The translations under genes were made by a program, and so were the position numbers. Source: Candidatus Nanoarchaeia archaeon (lineage in GTDB: Archaea; Nanobdellota; Nanobdellia; Woesearchaeales; JAQUVJ01). From it: a stretch of DNA of 64,000 bases. Location: the NCBI GenBank assembly GCA_028693395.1, contig JAQUVJ010000001.1:46387-110386 (forward strand), read 5' to 3'. Under the pieces are notes generated by a model, which was not told the origin of the DNA, made no database searches, and saw only the letters and a program-made list of their open reading frames with translations. Below are positions 8,183 through 32,686 of this stretch, one piece after another; the stretch's first letter is position 1; each line of letters starts with the position of its first letter.

Positions 8183-9778
8183 ATGGATAGAAAATATATT
8201 GTAATTACCGGAGGAGTAATCTCTGGATTAGGTAAAGGAATCGCTGCTGCTTCTATTGGAAGACTTCTTTCTCAAAAATATAATATTGTTCCTATAAAAT
8301 GTGATGGTTATCTTAATGTTGATCCTGGAACTATGAATCCTGTTGAACATGGTGAAGTGTTTGTTCTTGATGATGGAACTGAAGTTGATATGGATTTTGG
8401 ACATTATGAAAGATTCTTAAATACAACATGTAAAGGTAATCAAAATCTAACAATGGGAAAAGTCTTTGAAGAAATCAGAAAAAAAGAAAGAAAAGGAGAT
8501 TTTCTTGGTAAAACAGTTCAATTTGTTCCTCATGTTTCTGAATTTATATTAAATTGGTGGGAAAATGTATCAGATCAAAATAAATCTGATATTACTTTAA
8601 TTGAAATTGGAGGTACTATTGGAGATATTGAAAATGAATTATATGTCGAGGCAGCAAGACTTTTACAAATAAAACATGGAAGACAAAATGTTATGTTTGC
8701 ACATTTAACTTATGTACCAATTCCTAGTGGAGTTGATGAACAAAAATCAAAACCTACTCAACAATCACTTTCACTATTAAGACAAAGAGGAATTAATCCT
8801 GATATTGTAATGTGTAGATGTAAAGAATTTCTAACAGATAATATAAAAAATAAAATTGCTTCTTTTTGTAATCTTGATATAAACAATATTATAACTGCAA
8901 TTGATGTAGATACTGTTTATAAGATTCCTACAAAATTTAACGAACAAGGAGTTTTAAAAATAATTCAAGAAAGACTAAATATTGAAAAATTTGATTATAT
9001 AGATAATTGGAATGATTTATTTGTTAAACATGAAAAAAAAATAACAATTGCAATTTGTGGTAAATATACAAACTTAGAAGATTCTTATGCATCTGTTGTT
9101 GAAGCTTTATGGCATAGTAGTTTAAGACAAAATGTAGATGTTGAAATAAAGTTCTTTGATACACAAAAATTTGAATCCAATAAAAAAGAAGAAGAATTTG
9201 AAAAATTAAAAAAATGTGATGGAATAATAATTCCAGGTGGTTTTGGTTCTAGAGGAGTTGAAGGAAAAATTGAAATTATAAAATATGCAAGAGAAAATAA
9301 CATCCCTTTTCTAGGAATTTGTTATGGACTTCAACTTGCGGTTGTTGAATTTGCAAGAAACATATGTAATTTAACTGATGCAAATACTACTGAAATAAAT
9401 CCTGAAACAAAAAACCCAATTATAACAATTTTAGAAGATAAAAAAAATGAAAAAAACATAGGAGGAACATTAAGAAAAGGTTCTTATAAGGCGATAATAA
9501 AAGAAAACACAAAAATATTTGAATTATACAATTCTAATGTTGCATATGAAAGACACAGACATAGATATGAAGTAAATCCATTATTTCATGAAACATTAGA
9601 AGAAAATGGTTTGAGTCTTTGTGCAATGAGTCCTGAAGGAAAACTTGTTGAGTTTATAGAAAACAAAAATAATGATTATTTTGTTGCAACTCAAGCACAT
9701 CCTGAATTAAAAAGTTCATTTGATAAACCTGCACCACTTTTTTGGGGGTTAATTGATGCATGTATAAAAAGAAAATGA
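8183..9778 (+). CDS. pyrG: CTP synthase
   Basis: 531 aa. Canonical N-terminus (YIVITGGVISGLGKG) and a C-terminal class I glutamine amidotransferase domain (GICYGLQ, HPE). Confidence 0.9.
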   Translation: MDRKYIVITGGVISGLGKGIAAASIGRLLSQKYNIVPIKCDGYLNVDPGTMNPVEHGEVFVLDDGTEVDMDFGHYERFLNTTCKGNQNLTMGKVFEEIRKKERKGDFLGKTVQFVPHVSEFILNWWENVSDQNKSDITLIEIGGTIGDIENELYVEAARLLQIKHGRQNVMFAHLTYVPIPSGVDEQKSKPTQQSLSLLRQRGINPDIVMCRCKEFLTDNIKNKIASFCNLDINNIITAIDVDTVYKIPTKFNEQGVLKIIQERLNIEKFDYIDNWNDLFVKHEKKITIAICGKYTNLEDSYASVVEALWHSSLRQNVDVEIKFFDTQKFESNKKEEEFEKLKKCDGIIIPGGFGSRGVEGKIEIIKYARENNIPFLGICYGLQLAVVEFARNICNLTDANTTEINPETKNPIITILEDKKNEKNIGGTLRKGSYKAIIKENTKIFELYNSNVAYERHRHRYEVNPLFHETLEENGLSLCAMSPEGKLVEFIENKNNDYFVATQAHPELKSSFDKPAPLFWGLIDACIKRK

Positions 9779-9955
9779 TTTTTTATTATTTATTATTTTT
9801 TTATTAATTCTTTTGTTTATTTTGTTTATTTTTTGTTTATTTTTTTATCTTTTTATTTTTTAATTATTCTTTGTTTAATTGTATATTTTATTTTCAAATC
9901 TATAAAAAAATAAAATAAGTTTAAATATTATATAAATAATAAAGAAATGATTTAA

Positions 9956-10942
9956 ATGCCAATAATAGAAGTAAAAAACATTCGAAAAGAATTTAAAATT
10001 CCTAAAAAAAAAGAAAATTTATCGAAATTTAAACAAAAATTAGGAATATTTTATAGAGAATGGGAAAAAAAGATTGCTGTAGATGATATTTCTTTTGAAA
10101 TAGAACAAGGAGAATTTGTTGGATATATTGGTGCAAATGGTGCAGGGAAAAGTACAACAATAAAAATGCTTACAGGAATATTAACACCAAATAGTGGAAC
10201 AATAAAAATAATGAATTACGAACCTTCAAAAGACAGAATAAAATATACTCAAAATATTGGTGTTGTTTTTGGTCAAAGAAAAAATTTAATCTATGATATT
10301 CCTATAAAAGATTCTTATGGGATTTTTAGAACTATTTACGATATTCCTAAAGATGTATTTAAAGAAAGACTTAACAATTTAGTAAAAACAATGGAAATAG
10401 AAAACATAATGGAAGTTCCTTATAGAAAATTAAGTCTAGGTGAACAAATGAGAGCAGAAATTGTTTCCTGTTTTTTACACAATCCAAAAATTGTATTTTT
10501 AGATGAACCAACTATTGGATTAGATGTATATGCTAAACACAAAATAAGAGAATTTCTAAAAAAAATAAATAAAGAAGACAATGTAACAATTATTTTAACA
10601 ACTCATGATACACTTGATATAGAAGAACTTGCAAAAAGAATAATATTAATTGATGAAGGAAAAAAAATGTTTGATGGAACATTAAATGAATTTAAAAAAA
10701 TAAATTCTAGTAAAAAGAAAATTGAAGTTTTTTGTAAAGAAAAACCAATTGATTTTTTAAATAAAAATTCTTTTATTTCAGCATGGGATGATAATGAATT
10801 AAAATTAACAATTAACATAGAAAAAACAAATAATTTTAAAGATATAATAATAAAAATTATAGAAGAAATAGATTTCATTGATATCAAAATAGAAGATGAA
10901 TCTTTAGAAGAAATGATAAAAAGAATTTACAAAAAAGAATAA
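9956..10942 (+). CDS. ABC transporter ATP-binding protein, ABC-2 type
   Basis: 328 aa. Walker A (GANGAGKST), signature/Q-loop region (LSLGEQMR) and Walker B (IVFLDEPTIGLD). Confidence 0.8.
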   Translation: MPIIEVKNIRKEFKIPKKKENLSKFKQKLGIFYREWEKKIAVDDISFEIEQGEFVGYIGANGAGKSTTIKMLTGILTPNSGTIKIMNYEPSKDRIKYTQNIGVVFGQRKNLIYDIPIKDSYGIFRTIYDIPKDVFKERLNNLVKTMEIENIMEVPYRKLSLGEQMRAEIVSCFLHNPKIVFLDEPTIGLDVYAKHKIREFLKKINKEDNVTIILTTHDTLDIEELAKRIILIDEGKKMFDGTLNEFKKINSSKKKIEVFCKEKPIDFLNKNSFISAWDDNELKLTINIEKTNNFKDIIIKIIEEIDFIDIKIEDESLEEMIKRIYKKE

Positions 10943-11025
10943 TTAATTAAAGTAGACAATTCTTTTTAAATCTCATAAAAAAATAATGTTAAATATAATA
11001 AATAAAAAAACTAAGTGTAAAACAA

Positions 11026-11802
11026 ATGAATTTTAAAAAATATAACGGATACTTTTTTTCAGGGATTAAAAAATCATTAGAATTTAAATCAGAATTTTAT
11101 TCAATAATATTATTTAATGCAATTAAATTTTTTATAATTTATCTTGTGTGGAAAATGATATTTCCTTTTTTAAATGACCCTTTATTAAATTTCAATGAAA
11201 TAATTATTTATTATTTACTGTTTATAGTAAAAGATTCAATCCCTATTTATAATATCTCAAATGGAATAATTGATGAAATAAAAAGTGGAGATATTTCCGT
11301 ATCACTCTCAAAACCAATAAGTTTTATAAAAAAAACAACTTTTAGTAATTTTGGTTTGTGTTTTTTTAACATAATTTTTTCATATTTAGTTTTCATTATA
11401 ATTTCTATTATTTTTAAATTTAATTTGAATTATTTTTATTTAATTATTTATATTATTCCATTTTTTGTTTTTGATTTCATATTGAATATTATTTATGGAT
11501 TACTTGCTTTTTGGTTTGTAGAACCTTGGGGAATTAGAAATTTTATAAGAGGAATATTCTCAATTTTTGATGGATCCTTACTTCCGCTTTTCTTATATCC
11601 TGAATTTTTTCAAAATATATCAAAATTAACACCTTTTTATCATGGTTTTTATAGTTTATCACTTGCAACAATTGGGAAATTAAATACAAAAGAAGTATTT
11701 TTTTCAATTTCAATTCTAATGATATGGTCATTAATTCTTTATTGTATTTTAAAAATTATGTATAAATTTGGAATAAAAAAAATAGAGGGATTTGGAGGAT
11801 GA
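11026..11802 (+). CDS. ABC-2 family transporter permease
   Basis: 258 aa polytopic membrane protein immediately downstream of the ABC ATPase. Confidence 0.5.
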   Translation: MNFKKYNGYFFSGIKKSLEFKSEFYSIILFNAIKFFIIYLVWKMIFPFLNDPLLNFNEIIIYYLLFIVKDSIPIYNISNGIIDEIKSGDISVSLSKPISFIKKTTFSNFGLCFFNIIFSYLVFIIISIIFKFNLNYFYLIIYIIPFFVFDFILNIIYGLLAFWFVEPWGIRNFIRGIFSIFDGSLLPLFLYPEFFQNISKLTPFYHGFYSLSLATIGKLNTKEVFFSISILMIWSLILYCILKIMYKFGIKKIEGFGG

Positions 11803-12581
11803 TAAAAAAATATTTAAATTTCTTTTGGGAAAATTTAAAAATTTCCTTTAAATCATTAGTAGAATACAAAGCATCATTTTTTGCTGGATTATTTACAGAA
11901 ATTTCTTTTTTGATATCAAAATTAATTATAATAATAATTATCCAAAATATTGGATTTTTACCAGATTGGGAAATAAAAGATTTTCTTTTATATATTGTTT
12001 TAATAACTTACTTTGATACTCTATCTGGACTTTTTTTATGGAAAGATGATTTAAAAACAATTCTTTTAGAAGGTGAATTTTCATCATATTATTTAAGACC
12101 TATAAATGCTTTTATTAATTATTCTTTAAGATTAAATAAATATTCTTTAGGGTTTTTATCATTAGATTTAACTCTTTTAATTTTTTTATTTATATATTAT
12201 AAAATAAATTTATTAAACATAATCATTATGTCTTTTTTTTCACTCTTCTTTTTATTTTTTATCATTTTATTTTATTTATTTATAGTTTCATTAGTTTTAA
12301 TTTCTTTTGGTTTTGAAAAAATAATTAATTTAACTAGATCTATTGATATAACCACTTATTCTTATCCTCCAATAATTTTTAAAAATACTTCATTAAAATA
12401 TATGTATATATTTACTATTAGTTTTTGGGTCTCATTTTATTCAATAGAAATATTAAAAGGAAATTTTAGTGTACTAAATCCATTTGTATTTTTATTTCTT
12501 ATTTTTGGAATAATTTTATTTTATTTTTTAAATATAATTATTTGGAAACATGCTATTAAAAAAAATGAAGGATACATTTAA
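11799..12581 (+). CDS. ABC-2 family transporter permease, second subunit
   Basis: 260 aa polytopic membrane protein. Its start overlaps the stop of the previous gene by 4 nt (ATGA), which indicates translational coupling. Confidence 0.5.
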   Translation: MIKKYLNFFWENLKISFKSLVEYKASFFAGLFTEISFLISKLIIIIIIQNIGFLPDWEIKDFLLYIVLITYFDTLSGLFLWKDDLKTILLEGEFSSYYLRPINAFINYSLRLNKYSLGFLSLDLTLLIFLFIYYKINLLNIIIMSFFSLFFLFFIILFYLFIVSLVLISFGFEKIINLTRSIDITTYSYPPIIFKNTSLKYMYIFTISFWVSFYSIEILKGNFSVLNPFVFLFLIFGIILFYFLNIIIWKHAIKKNEGYI

Positions 12582-12654
12582 AAAAAATCTTTATAAAATG
12601 TTAATACAAAGAAAATAAAAACAAATAAAAAATGAAAAACAAAAAATGAAAAAA

Positions 12655-12800
12655 AATAACAATAAAAATATAAAAACATAATAATAATAATAATAATAAT
12701 AATAAAATAATAATAATAATAATAATAACAATATAATAATAATAATAATAATAACAATAATATAATAATATAATAATAAATAGAATATATGAAAAACAAA
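12655..12800. repeat. (ATA/AAT)n microsatellite-like tract
   Basis: Long run of 'ataataataata...' trinucleotide repeats in the intergenic region. It produces only spurious poly-I/L/Y ORFs. Confidence 0.7.
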
Positions 12801-12911
12801 TAATAATTTTATCAATAATCAAAAAAACAATTTTAATTATATATCTTATTATATAAAAATAAAACAAAATTTAAATATGAATAAATCAAATAAAAAAACA
12901 AGTGTGATATT

Positions 12912-14948
12912 ATGACAGAAAAAGAAAAGAAAATTTCTAATGATAAAGATAAAAAAACTAAAGTTGAAAATATAAAAAATGAAAAAAATAATGTTGAAAA
13001 AAAAAACAAATCAACTAATATCAAAAAAAAAGATATAAAAATAACAACTAATGATAATAAAAATAACAAAAGTAAAAATATTAAAAATAAAAAAACTGAA
13101 AACAAAAAAACTGAAATTAAAAATACTAAAAATACTAAAATTAAAGATGATAAAAAAAATAAAAATGAAGATCCACAAAATTTACTTAATGAAAAATTAG
13201 AATCATTTTCAAAAAAAATTCAAAATAAATTAAAAGAACAAATCTTAGGAATTGCTGTCATTCCTCCTTTTGATCAAATGCCTGATGATTTAAAAGAATA
13301 TATTCTTTCAAAATCTCAAACTCCTAATTTTGAAAAAAAAGAAGAAGTTTTAAAATTCATGGAAAATAAAATTCAAGTTTTAATTACAATAGATGATTCA
13401 ATCACTGAATTAAAAAATAAAAAAGATAAGATAATAAATAATGAAGAAGCATTAAACTTTATTATATCATTAAAAGAAAATAAAGATTTTGAAAACATAA
13501 ATCCTATATTTACAACAAAATTAGAATGGTTAAATAATTCTTATATCGGAGATTCATTTATTACAAGATTAATATCATTTTCAAATTTTATTTATGAAAA
13601 AGGATTTTTCTATTCTGGTATAAAAATCGGTGAAGTCCATAAAACAATGGTTTTAAAAAAATTTGAAAAATATATTGTTTCATACGTAATCATGGGATCT
13701 TTTATGCAAGGAACTGCTACTGAAAAAAGTGATTTTGATGTTATGATTATTGTAGATGATACCGATGTTCAAAAAATGACTCGATATGAATTAAAAGATA
13801 AATTACTTAACATGATTTATTCAATTGCATTTCAAGCAGGAGAACTTACAGGAATTAAAAACAAATTACATCCTCAAGTTTACATATTAACAGATTTCTG
13901 GGACTCAATAAAAAATGCAAACCCTGTAATCTTTTCAATGTTAAGAGATGGAATTGCAATTTATGATAGAGGACTTTTTTTGCCATGGAAACAATTATTA
14001 AAAATGGGAAAAATAAAACCAACAAGAGAATCAATAAATATGTTTAAATCACATTCTCATGATTTAATAAATAGAGTTGAAACAAAACTTAGAGATTATG
14101 TTTTTGAAGACATATATTATGCAATCTTAAATCCAATGCAAGCAGCACTTATGAGTTATGGTATAAATCCAACAACTCCAAGAGAAACAATTTCATTTGC
14201 TAGAGAATTTCTTTTTAACAAAGAAAAAATATTAAATGAAGAAACTCTTAATTTTTTAGATGAAATCAATAAACTACATAAAAAAATTGAATATAAAGAA
14301 GTTTCAAAAATTAGTATTGATGAATTAAAAAAAATTATTGAAAGTTCTGAAAAATACTTAAAAGAAATGGATAAAGTATTCAAAACATTAGATAAAAATA
14401 AATTAAAAGAAGATTATTATTCCTTATTTGATAAATTAAATGAAACATTAAAAGAAGCTTTAGAATTTAGATCCATTTCAACAAAAGATTTGAAAAAAGA
14501 CTTTGAAGAATCTTATATAAAAGATGGAAGTATAAAAGTTTCACAAAAAAATACTTTAGATAAAATATATAATCTTGAAACAAAAGCAAAAAATAATACT
14601 TTAACTGATGTTGAATTAGAATTCGTAAAACAATCATCATCAACTATAATTAAAGAAATTACAAGTGCAATAGGAAATGAAAAAATAAAAATATATAACA
14701 AAAAATTAAGAACAGCATCAACAAGTAATGGACAAATTAATTTTTGTCAAATAAAAAATTACATTTATATAAAAGAAAAAGATAATATTTTAAAGATATC
14801 TTTAACAAAAGATAATAAATTATCAAAAGAAACAATCATAAAAATAAATGAATTTGAAAAAACTATTAAAGAAAATGAAACAAAACCAATAAAATTCGAA
14901 GTTTTAGTAGAAATTTCAAATAAATTTAAAAACTTCGAACTATTATAA
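12912..14948 (+). CDS. Large Pol-beta-superfamily nucleotidyltransferase with a Lys-rich N-terminal tail and a long helical C-terminal region
   Basis: 678 aa. Residues 1-95 are K/N-rich low complexity. The core carries the MNT/TUTase/CCA-type NTase signature GSFMQGTATEKSDFDVMIIVDD (GS...SDxD). About 370 aa of predicted helical, K/E-rich sequence follows. Confidence 0.5.
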   Translation: MTEKEKKISNDKDKKTKVENIKNEKNNVEKKNKSTNIKKKDIKITTNDNKNNKSKNIKNKKTENKKTEIKNTKNTKIKDDKKNKNEDPQNLLNEKLESFSKKIQNKLKEQILGIAVIPPFDQMPDDLKEYILSKSQTPNFEKKEEVLKFMENKIQVLITIDDSITELKNKKDKIINNEEALNFIISLKENKDFENINPIFTTKLEWLNNSYIGDSFITRLISFSNFIYEKGFFYSGIKIGEVHKTMVLKKFEKYIVSYVIMGSFMQGTATEKSDFDVMIIVDDTDVQKMTRYELKDKLLNMIYSIAFQAGELTGIKNKLHPQVYILTDFWDSIKNANPVIFSMLRDGIAIYDRGLFLPWKQLLKMGKIKPTRESINMFKSHSHDLINRVETKLRDYVFEDIYYAILNPMQAALMSYGINPTTPRETISFAREFLFNKEKILNEETLNFLDEINKLHKKIEYKEVSKISIDELKKIIESSEKYLKEMDKVFKTLDKNKLKEDYYSLFDKLNETLKEALEFRSISTKDLKKDFEESYIKDGSIKVSQKNTLDKIYNLETKAKNNTLTDVELEFVKQSSSTIIKEITSAIGNEKIKIYNKKLRTASTSNGQINFCQIKNYIYIKEKDNILKISLTKDNKLSKETIIKINEFEKTIKENETKPIKFEVLVEISNKFKNFELL

Positions 14949-14975
14949 ATCATATAAAATTATTATAAGATAAAA

Positions 14976-16190
14976 ATGGTAGCAAAAACAATTCCGGAAT
15001 CAAGAAATGCAGGAGCAGTTCTTGTAATATTTATTTTAGGATTAGTATTGATAATGTATATTTTATCAATTTCTCCTGAAGAAAGAGAAAATCTTTTAGA
15101 ACAAGATAGTATTAATTCTTATGATTTTAAAAAAGTAACTATGGGATACATATATCCTGATGATAGGACATACAAACATGAAATAGCACCTGTAAATATA
15201 ATAGTAAATAAAAATGATGAACAAATTTTTTCATATAAAAACCTAGAAATAAAACAAAGTATTTTTTATAAACAAGAATTTAATTTAAATACAACTTTAT
15301 TAAAAAATTTTGATTATTTAAATTTATTAATAAGTTTTAGCGAAAAAATTGGACCACAAGATGCTTATTTAATAGTTAATAATAAAGAAATCGAATTCCC
15401 AAACAATTTACCTGTTAAAAGTATTATTATTCCAAAAGAATATTACGAAGGAAACAATATTAATATAAAAATAAAATTTAAAAATGATTATTTGAATCTT
15501 TTTACAAAGAGATCATATAAAATAAATGAAGTTTCTTTAGTAGGAACTATTTTAGACAAAACAAGTAGTTCAACATCAAGAAGTTTTTCTCTAAGACCAC
15601 AAGAAGAACAATTTTTAGATACAAGTGTTGCAACATTTGTTGTTGCATGTAGTGAAGATTCTATTATAAACATAAAATTAAATGATTTTACTGTATTAAA
15701 TGAAGAAATTTCATGTAAAATGACAAGAAGTTGTAATACATATAATGGAAGTGAAACTTGTTTAGATTTACCTTTAGAAAAAGCATATAGTTTAGAATTA
15801 CCAAGACATGCTTTCAAATATAATCAAAATGAATTGATTTTTTCATTATTAAAAGGAAAAGCAAGTGTAAATAAATTTACTATATTAAATTCATTAAATT
15901 CAATTCCTATAAATACTTTTGAATTTTCAATATCAGATAGACTTCTTCCTAGTAATAATATAAATTCAAATTATAGTTTTTATCTTGAAGCTAAAATTCA
16001 AAATTATGAATCAAGAAGTAATAGTGATACTCAATTTGATTTGTATATTAATGGAAATAAAATGTTAGTTGAAACAACAACAGGTATTTTAATTCAAAAT
16101 ATAACTGAATATATTTCAAAAAACAATATCGTATGGATTGATAGTCCTGATACATTATATGTAGATTATATTAAAGCATATTTTGAATAA
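14976..16190 (+). CDS. Hypothetical secreted or surface protein with an N-terminal signal anchor
   Basis: 404 aa. N-terminal hydrophobic segment (AGAVLVIFILGLVLIMYILSI) after a short charged leader. The remainder looks beta-rich and carries several Cys. The start codon lies 28 nt after the upstream NTase gene. Confidence 0.45.
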   Translation: MVAKTIPESRNAGAVLVIFILGLVLIMYILSISPEERENLLEQDSINSYDFKKVTMGYIYPDDRTYKHEIAPVNIIVNKNDEQIFSYKNLEIKQSIFYKQEFNLNTTLLKNFDYLNLLISFSEKIGPQDAYLIVNNKEIEFPNNLPVKSIIIPKEYYEGNNINIKIKFKNDYLNLFTKRSYKINEVSLVGTILDKTSSSTSRSFSLRPQEEQFLDTSVATFVVACSEDSIINIKLNDFTVLNEEISCKMTRSCNTYNGSETCLDLPLEKAYSLELPRHAFKYNQNELIFSLLKGKASVNKFTILNSLNSIPINTFEFSISDRLLPSNNINSNYSFYLEAKIQNYESRSNSDTQFDLYINGNKMLVETTTGILIQNITEYISKNNIVWIDSPDTLYVDYIKAYFE

Positions 16191-18108: not shown

Positions 18109-19359
<1,251 letters not shown>

Positions 19360-19379: not shown

Positions 19380-21545
19380 TTACATTCCCATTACACTTGA
19401 TGCTATATTTGAGAAAACTAAAGATAATATCAATCCTATTACGCAATACATAAGTGTTGCTTTTATTACACTTTTTGCTAAATATATTCTTCCTTCTACC
19501 TTATCTGAACCATCTTTTATTGAAGAATAAAGTACAGACAAAATAACTATAATTTCAACAACATAAACTCCAACAACTATTTGAAAAAAATAAGTCGGAA
19601 CTCCAACATCAAACATAGATGTCAAACCTCCAGCCATTCCATCAGTTCCCGCAAAATCATCCATGGTCTTAGTTAATGATAAAATTATCATTGATATCAT
19701 TGCAGTAATCGCAACAACAACAGATGTAATAACAGGTGCGACAAAACTAATCTGACTCTTTATGGTACTTAAAATATCACTCATTATATCCTTTAATCTT
19801 TCTTCTACTTCATGAATTCTTTTAAGATAATTCGATATATTAATCATAGCAAAAGATGAAGCAAGAGGACTTTTTTCAGACGTTTGAATTAAAATTTTCA
19901 TTGCTGTTTGTAAAATTGCAGAAGGATATCTATGAGCTGCACCATATTCTTCATCGAATATAGCATCTTTTAATCCCATTCCTAATTGATTAATGTTATA
20001 TGAAACATCTTTAAAAAATTCTCCACTAATTGTTCCATCGAGATTTTGGGCAATATTTTCAATCGCTAATTCTGTTGGTATTCCATCTCCAAGTCTATTT
20101 CCTAATTGATAAAGTGCAGAAGTAATATCACCATCAATTCCTTTACCTTTATCTTTTATTTTTTTTAAATTAATATTTTGTATATAATAATAAACTCCAA
20201 TTGCAACAGATATTCCTATTGGTATAAAATAACTTAAAAGTGTAGAAATCATACCAAATGGCCCTAAAAGAGTTCCTGATTTATCTCTTGCATAATCCAT
20301 CATCTTTAAACCTCCATAAGAAACTTCAAAAGATGGATTGATAGCATGAATAATTAAAGGTGAAAATCCTATTATAAAAAAGAAAATTAAAACAAAAATT
20401 GCTACTTTCATTGGAGTAATTTTTACAGTATTATTAGGATTTTTTTTGTCTTTTATTATTAATTTTCTTAAATCATCATATTTTGGATCATCAAAATCAG
20501 AAAAAGATCCTACAGCAATATTTCCTGTTGGTCTTGTAGATAAAATATCATAAACCAAATAAAAAATAATCAATGGTAAAATTACATCATAAAACGCAAA
20601 CAAATGATACCATCTAACTCCTCCCATAAAACTAACTGCTAAAGGTAGAATAATCATAGTAAGCATTGGTAGTATTACACCAAGCATCGTTACCATTGTT
20701 ATTGGAGAATGCAATTCTTGTGAATAATGTAGCATCTTTTCATAAGTTTCATTTAAGATTTGCTCTAAAGCTCTATCTAATAGATTTAATCTTCTTGTTT
20801 CATCTCCTTCATATAATGAACTTTCAATTAGATGAATACTTTCAATAAATTCTAAATTTGATTTTCTCCATTGTTCCAAATATTCATCAATTGCCACTTT
20901 TACTGATTGTTTTGCACCAGTTTCATAATTCCATACAATTCCCATTAAATCTAAAGAAATTGGTGGATCAATGTGATCTGCAGTAAACTTTAAAGCTAAT
21001 TCTAAATTAGAATTATGTCTCATATAAGTTGTTAAATAAAATACTGCCATTACCATTTGACTTGATGTTTTTATTTTCCATTGTTGAGCTAAATGTTTTG
21101 GGTATGTTGCTAATATAAAATAAACAAATCCACCAATAAGAAATGGAAGCATATACATTATTAAAGAACCCGTTGGAGCTACTAAAATTAATGATATAAA
21201 TCCTAATAAAATAGATGCAATAAAAGAAAAAGCAACAGTTGAACTTGGAGTTACATTTACTCTTGCAAATTTTAAATAATCTTCAATTTTTTCTTCTTTT
21301 TCTTTGGGTAAAGTTATATTAAACAACTTACCAGACCATTCACACCCTTTTATGTATAAATTTTGTTTTAAATTTGAAAATTGATTAATAAAACTTCTAT
21401 AATCATTAGTTATAACATCATTATAACCATCACTATCATTTGAATAATTAACTTTTGATCCACTATCTAATATATTAGAATTGTTTTCAAATTCTTTGTC
21501 TAATTTATTCGAATATTTTTGAATTATATCTTCGTAATTATCCAT
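19380..21545 (-). CDS. Polytopic membrane protein, possibly a type II secretion system F-domain (FlaJ/TadC-like) pilus/archaellum assembly platform
   Basis: 721 aa. Soluble N-terminal domain followed by two blocks of TM helices separated by a cytoplasmic domain, which resembles archaeal FlaJ/TadC. No adjacent secretion ATPase is seen. Confidence 0.35.
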   Translation of the reverse strand: MDNYEDIIQKYSNKLDKEFENNSNILDSGSKVNYSNDSDGYNDVITNDYRSFINQFSNLKQNLYIKGCEWSGKLFNITLPKEKEEKIEDYLKFARVNVTPSSTVAFSFIASILLGFISLILVAPTGSLIMYMLPFLIGGFVYFILATYPKHLAQQWKIKTSSQMVMAVFYLTTYMRHNSNLELALKFTADHIDPPISLDLMGIVWNYETGAKQSVKVAIDEYLEQWRKSNLEFIESIHLIESSLYEGDETRRLNLLDRALEQILNETYEKMLHYSQELHSPITMVTMLGVILPMLTMIILPLAVSFMGGVRWYHLFAFYDVILPLIIFYLVYDILSTRPTGNIAVGSFSDFDDPKYDDLRKLIIKDKKNPNNTVKITPMKVAIFVLIFFFIIGFSPLIIHAINPSFEVSYGGLKMMDYARDKSGTLLGPFGMISTLLSYFIPIGISVAIGVYYYIQNINLKKIKDKGKGIDGDITSALYQLGNRLGDGIPTELAIENIAQNLDGTISGEFFKDVSYNINQLGMGLKDAIFDEEYGAAHRYPSAILQTAMKILIQTSEKSPLASSFAMINISNYLKRIHEVEERLKDIMSDILSTIKSQISFVAPVITSVVVAITAMISMIILSLTKTMDDFAGTDGMAGGLTSMFDVGVPTYFFQIVVGVYVVEIIVILSVLYSSIKDGSDKVEGRIYLAKSVIKATLMYCVIGLILSLVFSNIASSVMGM

Positions 21546-21658
21546 TAATTAAAAATACAATTTACAGTATTTAAAAAGTTAGTTTTCACTAATTAATTAA
21601 TACAGAATACTTTTGGAATAATAAAATATAAAAAATAAGAAAACATTAAATAAAAAAA

Positions 21659-21744
21659 TGTGGGGGGGAGGATTCGAACCCCCGAACTCACTAAGAGACA
21701 GGATCTTAAGTCCTGCGCATTTGGCCAGGCTTTGCTACCCCCAC
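21659..21744 (-). tRNA. tRNA-Leu (anticodon UAA)
   Basis: Reverse complement folds as acceptor GTGGGGG/CCCCCAC, D-stem GCA/TGC, anticodon stem CAGGA/TCCTG and loop CTTAAGA (anticodon TAA). It has a long variable arm, T-loop TTCGAAT and discriminator A. No encoded CCA. Confidence 0.8.
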
Positions 21745-21794
21745 AATAATAATCTAATTCTTGGATTGATAAATGCTTTATAAATATTTTGTTT

Positions 21795-32334: not shown

Positions 32335-32439
32335 GGGCCTGTAGCTTAGCCTGGTTGGAGCGCTGGTCTTATATGGCTACGTTTTAAACATAGGTTCTAA
32401 GAGAACCAGTGGTCCTGAGTTCAAATCTCAGCAGGCCCA
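32335..32439 (+). tRNA. Intron-containing tRNA with anticodon UAU (tRNA-Ile decoding AUA); intron of about 30 nt (32374-32403) at the canonical 37/38 position
   Basis: Acceptor GGGCCTG/CAGGCCC, D-stem GCTT/GAGC, anticodon stem CTGGT(32363-32367)/ACCAG(32405-32409), loop C-T-TAT-A (U33 and purine 37 conserved), T-arm CTGAG-TTCAAAT-CTCAG and discriminator A. The anticodon-loop CTTA can pair with intron TAAG to form a BHB-like helix. Confidence 0.7.
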
Positions 32440-32448
32440 GATTTTTAT

Positions 32449-32523
32449 GCCCGAATGGTGTAGTCCGGCCAATCATTCGGCCCTTTCGAGGCCGAGACCC
32501 GGGTTCGAATCCCGGTTCGAGCA
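32449..32523 (+). tRNA. tRNA-Glu (anticodon UUC)
   Basis: The D-arm GGTGTAGTCCGGCCAATCAT is identical to the conserved archaeal tRNA-Glu D-arm. Anticodon stem CGGCC/GGCCG with loop CTTTCGA, and T-arm CCGGG-TTCGAAT-CCCGG. The acceptor has one C-A mismatch at 3:70. Confidence 0.8.
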
Positions 32524-32686
32524 TTAAAATAAATTGGGATTTTTTCCCAATTTTAATAATTCTAGGTTTGCTTTGTTTATTTTAATTTATTTTAAATTTC
32601 TAAAAACAACTAAAATTTACATAAAAAATTAATAAAATTCAACAAAAAAAAGAAAATTTTATATTTAATAAAGAATATAAAAATTC

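Follow-up and report, generated by a model that had tools for sequence, protein, structure and literature searches.

What does a large nucleotidyltransferase (NTase) do in a DPANN archaeon, and does the gene that follows it belong to the same system? This question is raised by a 64,000-nt stretch of contig JAQUVJ010000001.1 (positions 46,387 to 110,386 of the forward strand; assembly GCA_028693395.1) from a Candidatus Nanoarchaeia archaeon of the Woesearchaeales, which we call the window and which has a G+C content of about 20%. It encodes a 678-aa NTase and, 27 nt further on, a 404-aa protein. A first-pass annotation, made from the letters alone, had placed both open reading frames (ORFs) correctly and had read them as an uncharacterised two-gene module: a nucleic-acid-modifying or signal-producing enzyme with an extracellular partner, or a defence or host-interaction module. 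Our analysis keeps the enzyme and drops the partner. The NTase is built as tail–ψNTase–NTase–HEPN–HEPN–C-terminal domain (CTD), ψNTase being a dead duplicate of the NTase fold, and it has relatives throughout the DPANN archaea. [quoted passage not shown]

Both ORFs are real coding genes, since databases hold identical records for the NTase (titled "nucleotidyltransferase domain-containing protein") and for the 404-aa protein, and since a sister contig retains the two at near-identical lengths (about 68-69% identity for the NTase and 61% for the 404-aa protein).

Domain architecture of the 678-aa protein

The active NTase domain bears out the earlier recognition of a Pol-beta-superfamily enzyme with an intact motif. 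Its catalytic motif, GSFMQGTATEKSDFDVMIIVDD, occupies aa 262-283. The catalytic residues G262-S263…D274-x-D276 and an acidic cluster of D282, D283 and D285 are encoded at nt 13695-13766, and D328 (nt 13893-13895) is a candidate third carboxylate, an arrangement that agrees with the hG[GS]x9-13Dh[DE]h signature of the Pol-beta superfamily and MNT fold. The Pfam profile NTP_transf_2 scores 24.8 bits over aa 250-295 (gathering score 21), and NTP_transf_2 or Polbeta matches are found in 38-39 of the 39 aligned family members; beyond this generic profile, no curated Pfam or NCBIfam family cut-off is reached. The motif residues are invariant across the 39 sequences. They are also strongly kept among 62 more diverged representatives (at most 50% identical to one another), where G262 occurs in all 62, S263 in 57, D274 in 60 and D276 in 59, the cluster D282/D283/D285 in 55-60 (D282 in 55, D285 in 58), and D or E at position 328 in 50.

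An AlphaFold 2 (AF2) model built on the 39 homologues has a mean predicted local distance difference test score (pLDDT) of 79, with aa 1-85 below 50 and most of the remainder at 80-93. It lays out two successive α/β units whose elements come in one and the same order (aa 88-229 and 233-352), a helical region (aa 372-598) and a unit of five strands and two helices (aa 600-678). In a Foldseek search of the kind that the first-pass annotation had suggested, the best matches were the MNT antitoxins of HEPN–MNT complexes, followed by the ANT, kanamycin nucleotidyltransferase (KNTase), AadA and LinB enzymes and the HEPN protein AF0298, all at E-values above 1e-3.

The first α/β unit had been described as an unknown domain of some 150 aa. 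The domain is present, but it is not unknown: profile-profile comparison of the two units with hhalign (aa 88-232 against aa 233-365) gives a probability of 99.1% and an E-value of 1.7e-18, which makes it a degenerate duplicate of the NTase domain. Its GS has become PP, and its DxD has become K.Q in the window copy and K.N in the family consensus, so this ψNTase cannot be catalytic. Five of its residues (G113, P118, P119, D161 and D162) are invariant in the 39 sequences.

What had been taken for about 370 aa of helix at the C-terminal end is helical over aa 372-598 only, and this region splits into two HEPN-like halves that resemble one another weakly (hhalign probability 84%, E 8e-6). Pfam HEPN has no direct match in the window copy. 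PF05168 does match the second half in 11 of the 39 members, in homologue P0053 at aa 419-533 with 28.9 bits against a cut-off of 22. A sub-profile of the first half has as its best match in the PDB the UPF0332 HEPN protein AF0298 (E 0.035), with the family's RKxIEHG aligned on REESDYG; by this alignment RKxIEHG lies at the canonical HEPN motif position. The Foldseek match to 2hsb has a probability of 1.0 and a TM-score of 0.62, and the JGI annotation of family proteins reads "UPF0332 family/predicted nucleotidyltransferase". A four-helix bundle recognised by HEPN profiles is therefore present, by way of homologues and fold matches. Among the profile searches that had been proposed beforehand, NTP_transf_2 thus came out above its cut-off and HEPN was reached through homologues, and PAP_assoc, CD-NTase and OAS gave no match.

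The residues that a HEPN RNase would use are kept more loosely than those of the NTase. The window copy has HKKIEY (H456…Y461) at the site where the family consensus is RKxIEHG. Arginine stands at position 456 in 41 of the 62 representatives (Y, I, F or W in the others) and histidine at 461 in 44, and the adjoining K457 and E460 are found in 54-55. The pair R…H is present in about 103 of 120 close homologues, and in about 14 the R is replaced by Y (mostly giving Y…H); the window copy and its sister show H…Y. HEPN2 has no R-x4-H motif. The arrangement of a catalytic HEPN RNase, R-x4-6-H with normally two domains per site, is thus absent from the window protein. Because the NTase residues are near-strict and the HEPN R and H looser, selection acts on the chemistry of the NTase and not on an RNase site in HEPN. 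Anantharaman et al. (2013, PMC3710099) argue that a HEPN domain, once joined to an MNT, has as a rule lost its catalytic residues and works in binding or regulation within a "domesticated" TA system, KNTase and GlnE/GlnD being examples.

The CTD is a five-strand meander with two helices that reaches a pLDDT of 93.9 when modelled by itself. Foldseek finds nothing for it in the PDB better than E = 1, and no match to known RNA-binding folds. At the other end, the K/N-rich stretch of 95 aa, recognised as such in the first-pass annotation, has 32 K/R against 16 D/E (net charge +16), and its first 85 residues are the part modelled as disordered. It is an expanded form of a family-wide tail, which in the 39 aligned sequences has a median length of 48 aa and a median net charge of +5 and which in GC-richer homologues is mixed-charge and not strongly basic. 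A-rich in-frame tandem repeats at 12943-13172, whose periods (9, 15, 24, 30 and 45) are multiples of three, code for the window's tail; the sister genome has a tail of 38 aa, and the growth of the window's to 95 aa probably came about through replication slippage in a genome of 20% G+C. SAP-domain matches, considered as a nucleic-acid-binding clue, were discarded: in homologue P0014, the one member with a reported position, the match is a 16-residue piece within an NTase helix. As the first-pass annotation had remarked, the whole protein exceeds MNT antitoxins and KNTase in size by a wide margin, and we found no description in the literature of the duplicated architecture, the CTD or the function of the NTase–HEPN family.

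Family distribution and genomic neighbours

More than 2,000 relatives of the 678-aa protein are found at E ≤ 1e-3. Among the 120 matches listed, lengths run from 587 to 678 aa and the named proteins come from metagenome-assembled genomes (MAGs) of Woesearchaeota or Nanoarchaeota. A search of 1.84 billion representatives at 50% identity matched 916 clusters, of which 282 reach E < 1e-30, and at least 498 stretches encode a relative in a collection of one genome per species. Mean column identity over the 39 aligned sequences is 61%, with a core (aa 231-430) that is almost invariant. Because DPANN genomes are very small, a protein of about 600 aa that is so widely kept at about 60% column identity is likely to be important. 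The window copy sits on a long branch, at 34-39% identity to the aligned members other than its sister; judged from its sequence, it is a fast-evolving, divergent, AT-biased but ordinary member of a DPANN-wide family.

Two further forms of the protein occur. The short form (380-490 aa) has the layout tail–NTase–HEPN–HEPN, without ψNTase and CTD; its named examples are Aenigmatarchaeota, and the Aenigmatarchaeota short form aligns to window aa 237-587 with a probability of 100% and an E-value of 1e-71. The other form (1,083-1,340 aa; homologues P0180, P0187, P0191, P0193, P0200, P0205, P0216 and P0231) carries about 700 aa of TPR repeats ahead of NTase–HEPN. TPR repeats are protein-binding. Taxonomic labels of MAG records are unreliable: the title "uncultured Methanosarcinales archaeon" stands on many species-representative MAGs with a DPANN NTase–HEPN gene, and homologue P0181 bears the label Planctomycetota, probably through labelling or binning errors.

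The 404-aa protein does have the signal anchor that had been predicted for it, a single strongly hydrophobic segment at about aa 12-34, and it contains four clustered cysteines. It has no Pfam, NCBIfam or PADLOC match, and among 5.8 billion clusters its only homologue is the one on the sister contig, encoded directly 3' of the sister NTase gene with a spacing of 24 nt. Elsewhere the downstream neighbour of the NTase gene is a different one, both in three distant contigs and in 80 species-representative loci, and N-terminally anchored proteins are not enriched at that place (6 of 28, against a background of 16%). Taken together, the single homologue, the lack of linkage at 84 other loci and the lack of anchor enrichment lead us to reject a two-gene module. 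The 404-aa gene is a lineage-specific neighbour, probably co-transcribed with the NTase gene here, that stands outside the conserved unit.

The NTase gene belongs to no conserved operon, and its sole recurrent neighbour is another gene altogether. The product of this neighbour, about 183 aa long, combines a CBS pair with a zinc ribbon at the C-terminus; the gene lies downstream on the same strand in 26 of the 69 loci that have room there, and in 19 it is the ORF that follows immediately. The diversity of the family is covered by these loci, in which NTase identities go down to 49%. A tblastn search found no homologue of it in the 64-kb window. On the upstream side, a conserved divergent gene was considered and rejected: the upstream genes of three distant loci, encoding 212-248 aa, have no BLASTP similarity to one another. 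The wider surroundings include genes for RNA polymerase A'/A'', L7Ae and pyrimidine metabolism in Woesearchaeota, and for ribosomal proteins, RIO kinase, the proteasome, aCPSF1 and Kae1 in Aenigmatarchaeota.

Two other neighbourhood patterns are worth recording. In Aenigmatarchaeota loci L087 (1702-4958), L088 (1333-4933) and L089 (839-4110), a conserved gene pair precedes the short-form NTase–HEPN gene on the same strand; its products are a protein of about 570 aa with a zinc ribbon and one of about 515-644 aa with, in one member, a faint AP_endonuc_2/TIM-barrel match, and they are 30-53% identical to one another. No homologue of this pair was found in the Woesearchaeota loci or in the window, and we found no neighbour conserved across the phyla. 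In 12 Woesearchaeota loci (L009, L014, L021, L040, L049, L079, L080 and others), tandem arrays of two to four paralogous genes, encoding about 170-190 aa each and without a family assignment, trail the NTase or the CBS gene, 0.1-4 kb downstream of the NTase gene.

The locus and its surroundings

Coordinates of the NTase gene, its domains and its immediate flanks are collected in Table 1.

Table 1. Features of the NTase locus, in window coordinates
Feature	Coordinates	Strand	Basis
NTase gene, 678-aa product, tail–ψNTase–NTase–HEPN–HEPN–CTD	12912..14948	+	ORF list, identical database record, AF2 model
Disordered K/N-rich N-terminal tail, aa 1-95, expanded form of family-wide tail	12912..13196	+	pLDDT <50 (aa 1-85), charge, repeats
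ψNTase, aa 96-232, dead NTase-fold duplicate	13197..13607	+	hhalign, secondary-structure order
Active NTase domain, aa 233-365	13608..14006	+	Pfam NTP_transf_2, residue conservation, Foldseek
HEPN-like domain 1, aa 366-462; HKKIEY aa 456-461 at nt 14277-14294	14007..14297	+	sub-profile PDB match, motif statistics
HEPN-like domain 2, aa 463-598, without R-x4-H	14298..14705	+	PF05168 in homologues, hhalign
C-terminal α/β domain, aa 599-678, long form only	14706..14945	+	domain AF2 model, Foldseek, short-form comparison
Downstream gene, 404-aa product with N-terminal signal anchor	14976..16190	+	ORF list, hydrophobicity, one homologue
A-rich intergenic region 5' of NTase gene, holding (AAT)n microsatellite 12655-12779	12582..12911	.	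Tandem Repeats Finder (TRF), direct reading

The trinucleotide repeat that had been seen upstream of the NTase gene is an (AAT)n microsatellite, in which TRF counts 43.7 copies of period 3 with 82% matches. The gene is flanked by an ABC transporter operon on one side and by genes for Kae1, an Fe-S assembly protein and an RNA methyltransferase-like protein on the other. Compared with sister contig L001, the block with pyrG and the ABC transporter (window 8183-12581) is inverted and the block of NTase, 404-aa, Kae1, Fe-S and methyltransferase genes is collinear, which places a rearrangement breakpoint within the repeat-rich intergenic region 12582-12911. A terminator scan found no terminators; the promoter scan used a sigma-70 consensus, which is not applicable to archaea.

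Further along the window, the methyltransferase-like protein encoded at 18109-19359 (+; TIGR01177/UPF0020) is broken up by long poly-asparagine runs, another low-complexity insertion in this AT-rich genome. The gene at 19380-21545 (-) encodes a 721-aa protein with hydrophobic stretches and without a Pfam or NCBIfam match; a 715-aa gene at 11998-13869 of L001 has the same position and strand, the two being likened by length and place alone. Rfam recognises a complete tRNA over 105 nt at 32335-32439 (+), overlooked by ARAGORN, which adjoins tRNA-Glu (32448-32524) and whose span implies an intron of about 30 nt. None of the window's three tRNA genes (these two and tRNA-Leu at 21658-21745, minus strand) encodes a 3' CCA.

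What the family may do

The family resembles a group that has been singled out before. Makarova, Wolf and Koonin (2019, PMC6393860) named four priority DPANN-specific uncharacterised clusters, of which one, "MNT fused to HEPN", typically lies in a housekeeping context and is so unusually conserved as to suggest an important role. By its description, that cluster, cls.004259 (prototype NEQ050), very probably includes our family; it shares with it the presence of MNT and HEPN on one chain, the restriction to DPANN archaea, the unusual conservation and the housekeeping neighbourhood. Its published description gives the fusion only and leans to a TA module, whereas the family shows in addition a duplicated but dead NTase, a pair of HEPN-like domains, a CTD of its own, TPR-fused variants and a CBS neighbour.

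Among characterised proteins, the best matches in both sequence and fold are HepT/MntA and the fused FhepTA, which have the same two folds and share the motif GSx(10)DxD. MntA and FhepTA AMPylate their HEPN partner, the acceptor tyrosine lying in RxxxxHxY (PMC13000451). FhepTA is a 276-aa protein of mobile elements with an active RφxxxH and the acceptor Tyr (PMC7641770, PMC13000451); family members, in contrast, have about 620 aa and duplicated domains, keep the motif in part (it is lost in the window copy) without an adjacent Tyr, and are widely conserved and not patchy. The aminoglycoside-type enzymes ANT(4'), ANT(9), AadA and LinB likewise have an NTase followed by a helical, HEPN-derived substrate-binding domain, and Foldseek aligns 250-290 columns with them; the TM-scores are, however, 0.31-0.41, these enzymes are resistance genes of patchy distribution, and KNTase_C (PF07827) has no match in the 39 members. 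GlnE has two NTase and two helical domains in the order N–H–N–H, and DUF294 proteins combine CBS pairs with an NTase. Together with GlnD, these are likewise domesticated pairs of NTase and HEPN-like domains that modify proteins, and the CBS pair of DUF294 parallels the CBS neighbour of our family, whose own order is different, N–N–H–H. Matches to DUF294 in 12 of the 39 members (below threshold) and to SidM_N in 7 are weak, and the Pfam profiles GlnE and GlnD_UR_UTase have none.

If the family is a domesticated MNT–HEPN fusion, the ψNTase/NTase and HEPN/HEPN pairs would mimic on a single chain the dimeric assemblies of MntA–HepT and KNTase, and the long form would be left with a single composite catalytic site. 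The live site would carry out nucleotidyl transfer; by analogy with the nearest characterised enzymes, ATP would most likely be the donor and AMP the moiety passed on. The HEPN pair and the CTD would hold or position the acceptor, with the HEPN pair as a binding or regulatory platform and not an RNase, and in many lineages the adjacent CBS-pair protein may gate the enzyme. As to the acceptor, we tentatively favour a hydroxyl group of a protein, either a partner or the enzyme itself, over RNA tailing and signal synthesis, because the nearest characterised enzymes AMPylate proteins, because TPR-fused variants exist and because the CBS association parallels regulatory NTases. Tailing of RNA 3' ends would come close behind as a somewhat more doubtful choice, and the synthesis of a nucleotide signal, also close, would be less probable again.

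Several points weigh against the domesticated-fusion reading. No search result identifies an acceptor, and the basic tail and information-processing neighbours suit an RNA substrate equally well. The template modelling score of the AF2 model (pTM) is only 0.50, so that the packing between domains is uncertain, and the pseudo-dimer is a predicted arrangement that we infer from domain order. The family fits cls.004259 when compared by description alone. Matches to characterised NTases are confined to the catalytic motif of about 50 aa and lie far under family cut-offs: the MntA equivalog NF047752 scores 21.6 bits in the window copy and up to 37.4 in homologues against a cut-off of 60, NCBIfam ANT models score 13-31 bits against 193-350 (ANT(9) 31/340, ANT(4')-II 15/350, PRK13746 14/193), and the Foldseek matches have the E-values given above. 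The Hailong protein HalB, also an MNT-like NTase with a helical domain, is matched by fold with probabilities of 0.9-0.98 and weakly by NCBIfam, but at 19 bits against a 190-bit cut-off, and the family has no HalA-like partner and lies outside defence contexts. R-x4-H persists in HEPN1 of most members, though not of the window copy, so they may still cut RNA or bind phosphate to some degree. The family also lacks the acceptor Tyr of RxxxxHxY, the consensus being RKxIEHGxKK and the window sequence HKKIEYKE.

Much of the same evidence can be read differently. The family could be an RNA (or DNA) 3'-end nucleotidyltransferase in DPANN-specific RNA processing, its tail and HEPN pair holding nucleic acid while the NTase adds untemplated nucleotides in tailing, repair or a CCA-like reaction. 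A basic tail is present in all members, and the net charge of the whole protein is +7 to +27 in six sequences checked, but the mixed charge of the tail in GC-richer homologues tells against this reading. The genes nearby often serve translation or transcription, many families use the HEPN fold to bind RNA (PMC3710099), and the window's tRNA genes, lacking an encoded CCA, mean that a CCA-adding activity is required in the organism. Palm matches to MTPAP-like poly(A) polymerase appear in 38 of the 39 members (best E 8e-4), but they are weak and cover the generic motif only, with MTPAP-like_central at 17.7 bits or less in five members scored against a cut-off of 27. Pfam detects neither PAP_assoc nor tRNA_NucTransf2 nor any other nucleic-acid-binding domain in the window protein and the 39 members, and the CTD, as noted, resembles no known RNA-binding fold. 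From the archaeal class I CCA enzyme, the window protein and its 39 homologues have the generic NTase motif and no other domain; no confident match to a CCA enzyme or a Pol-beta repair enzyme, one half of what would have refuted the first-pass annotation's reading, turned up. On balance we consider a 3'-end NTase unlikely, though less so than the alternatives that follow.

The recurrent gene downstream invites another reading, in which the NTase makes a nucleotide signal (cAMP, a cyclic nucleotide or an oligoadenylate) that is read by the adjacent CBS-domain receptor, the two making up a pair that signals energy state or stress. Adenosine derivatives and cyclic dinucleotides are ligands of CBS pairs, CbpB is among the weak NCBIfam matches, and the linkage recurs on the same strand across the diversity of the family; it is nonetheless missing in about 60% of loci as well as in the window. 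The class I adenylate cyclase N-domain (weak matches in 26 of the 39 members) and HalB, an oligo-dA synthase matched by sequence and by fold, point the same way, but both sets of matches are sub-threshold and cover the catalytic motif only, and no CD-NTase, OAS or cGAS-like family (SMODS, Mab-21 or OAS1_C) has a Pfam or PADLOC match at E up to 0.1. A signal synthase is the less probable of these two. Least probable of all, and in our view very doubtful, is a fused type VII TA or defence module in which the HEPN RNase is silenced by AMPylation from its own MNT, as in Shewanella FhepTA, perhaps with the downstream protein taking part. One-chain MNT and HEPN are the defining parts of FhepTA, most family members keep R-x4-H in HEPN1, and PADLOC gives weak matches to the candidate systems PDC-S09 and PDC-M05A. 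The window copy has H…Y in place of R…H, however, and with no motif in HEPN2 the two motifs that HEPN RNase sites normally need are not both there; the acceptor Tyr is lacking, the PADLOC matches are confined to some 50 aa of the NTase motif, and the downstream gene is not conserved. A gene kept in so many species at 61% mean column identity, in varied and often housekeeping contexts and not in mobile islands, also disfavours the defence or host-interaction module that the first-pass annotation had allowed for.

In summary, the new points are the architecture and its variant forms, the RNase residues of HEPN, which are weakly conserved and both replaced in the window copy, the linkage to a CBS gene, and the finding that the downstream gene is not a partner. 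The domain map gives the family one live and one dead NTase, two HEPN-like domains with dispensable RNase residues and a new C-terminal fold, and it distinguishes short, long and TPR-fused forms. The analysis also drops the false lead of a secreted partner and puts in its place the CBS/zinc-ribbon protein as a testable one. On the domesticated-fusion reading, the family would be a clean example of a TA module turned into a core gene. More speculatively, an early DPANN ancestor may have captured a TA-derived NTase–HEPN protein that became a near-essential, single-site enzyme, carrying out a modification that is not known in other archaea, such as AMPylating a core factor of translation or transcription, or tailing RNA without a template. 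The Woesearchaeota would then have added the dead NTase "partner" domain, the new C-terminal fold and a coupling to a CBS energy sensor. We regard this early capture as possible and no better than tentative; if true, it would mean that the family provides a lineage-defining housekeeping activity of ultra-small symbiotic archaea.

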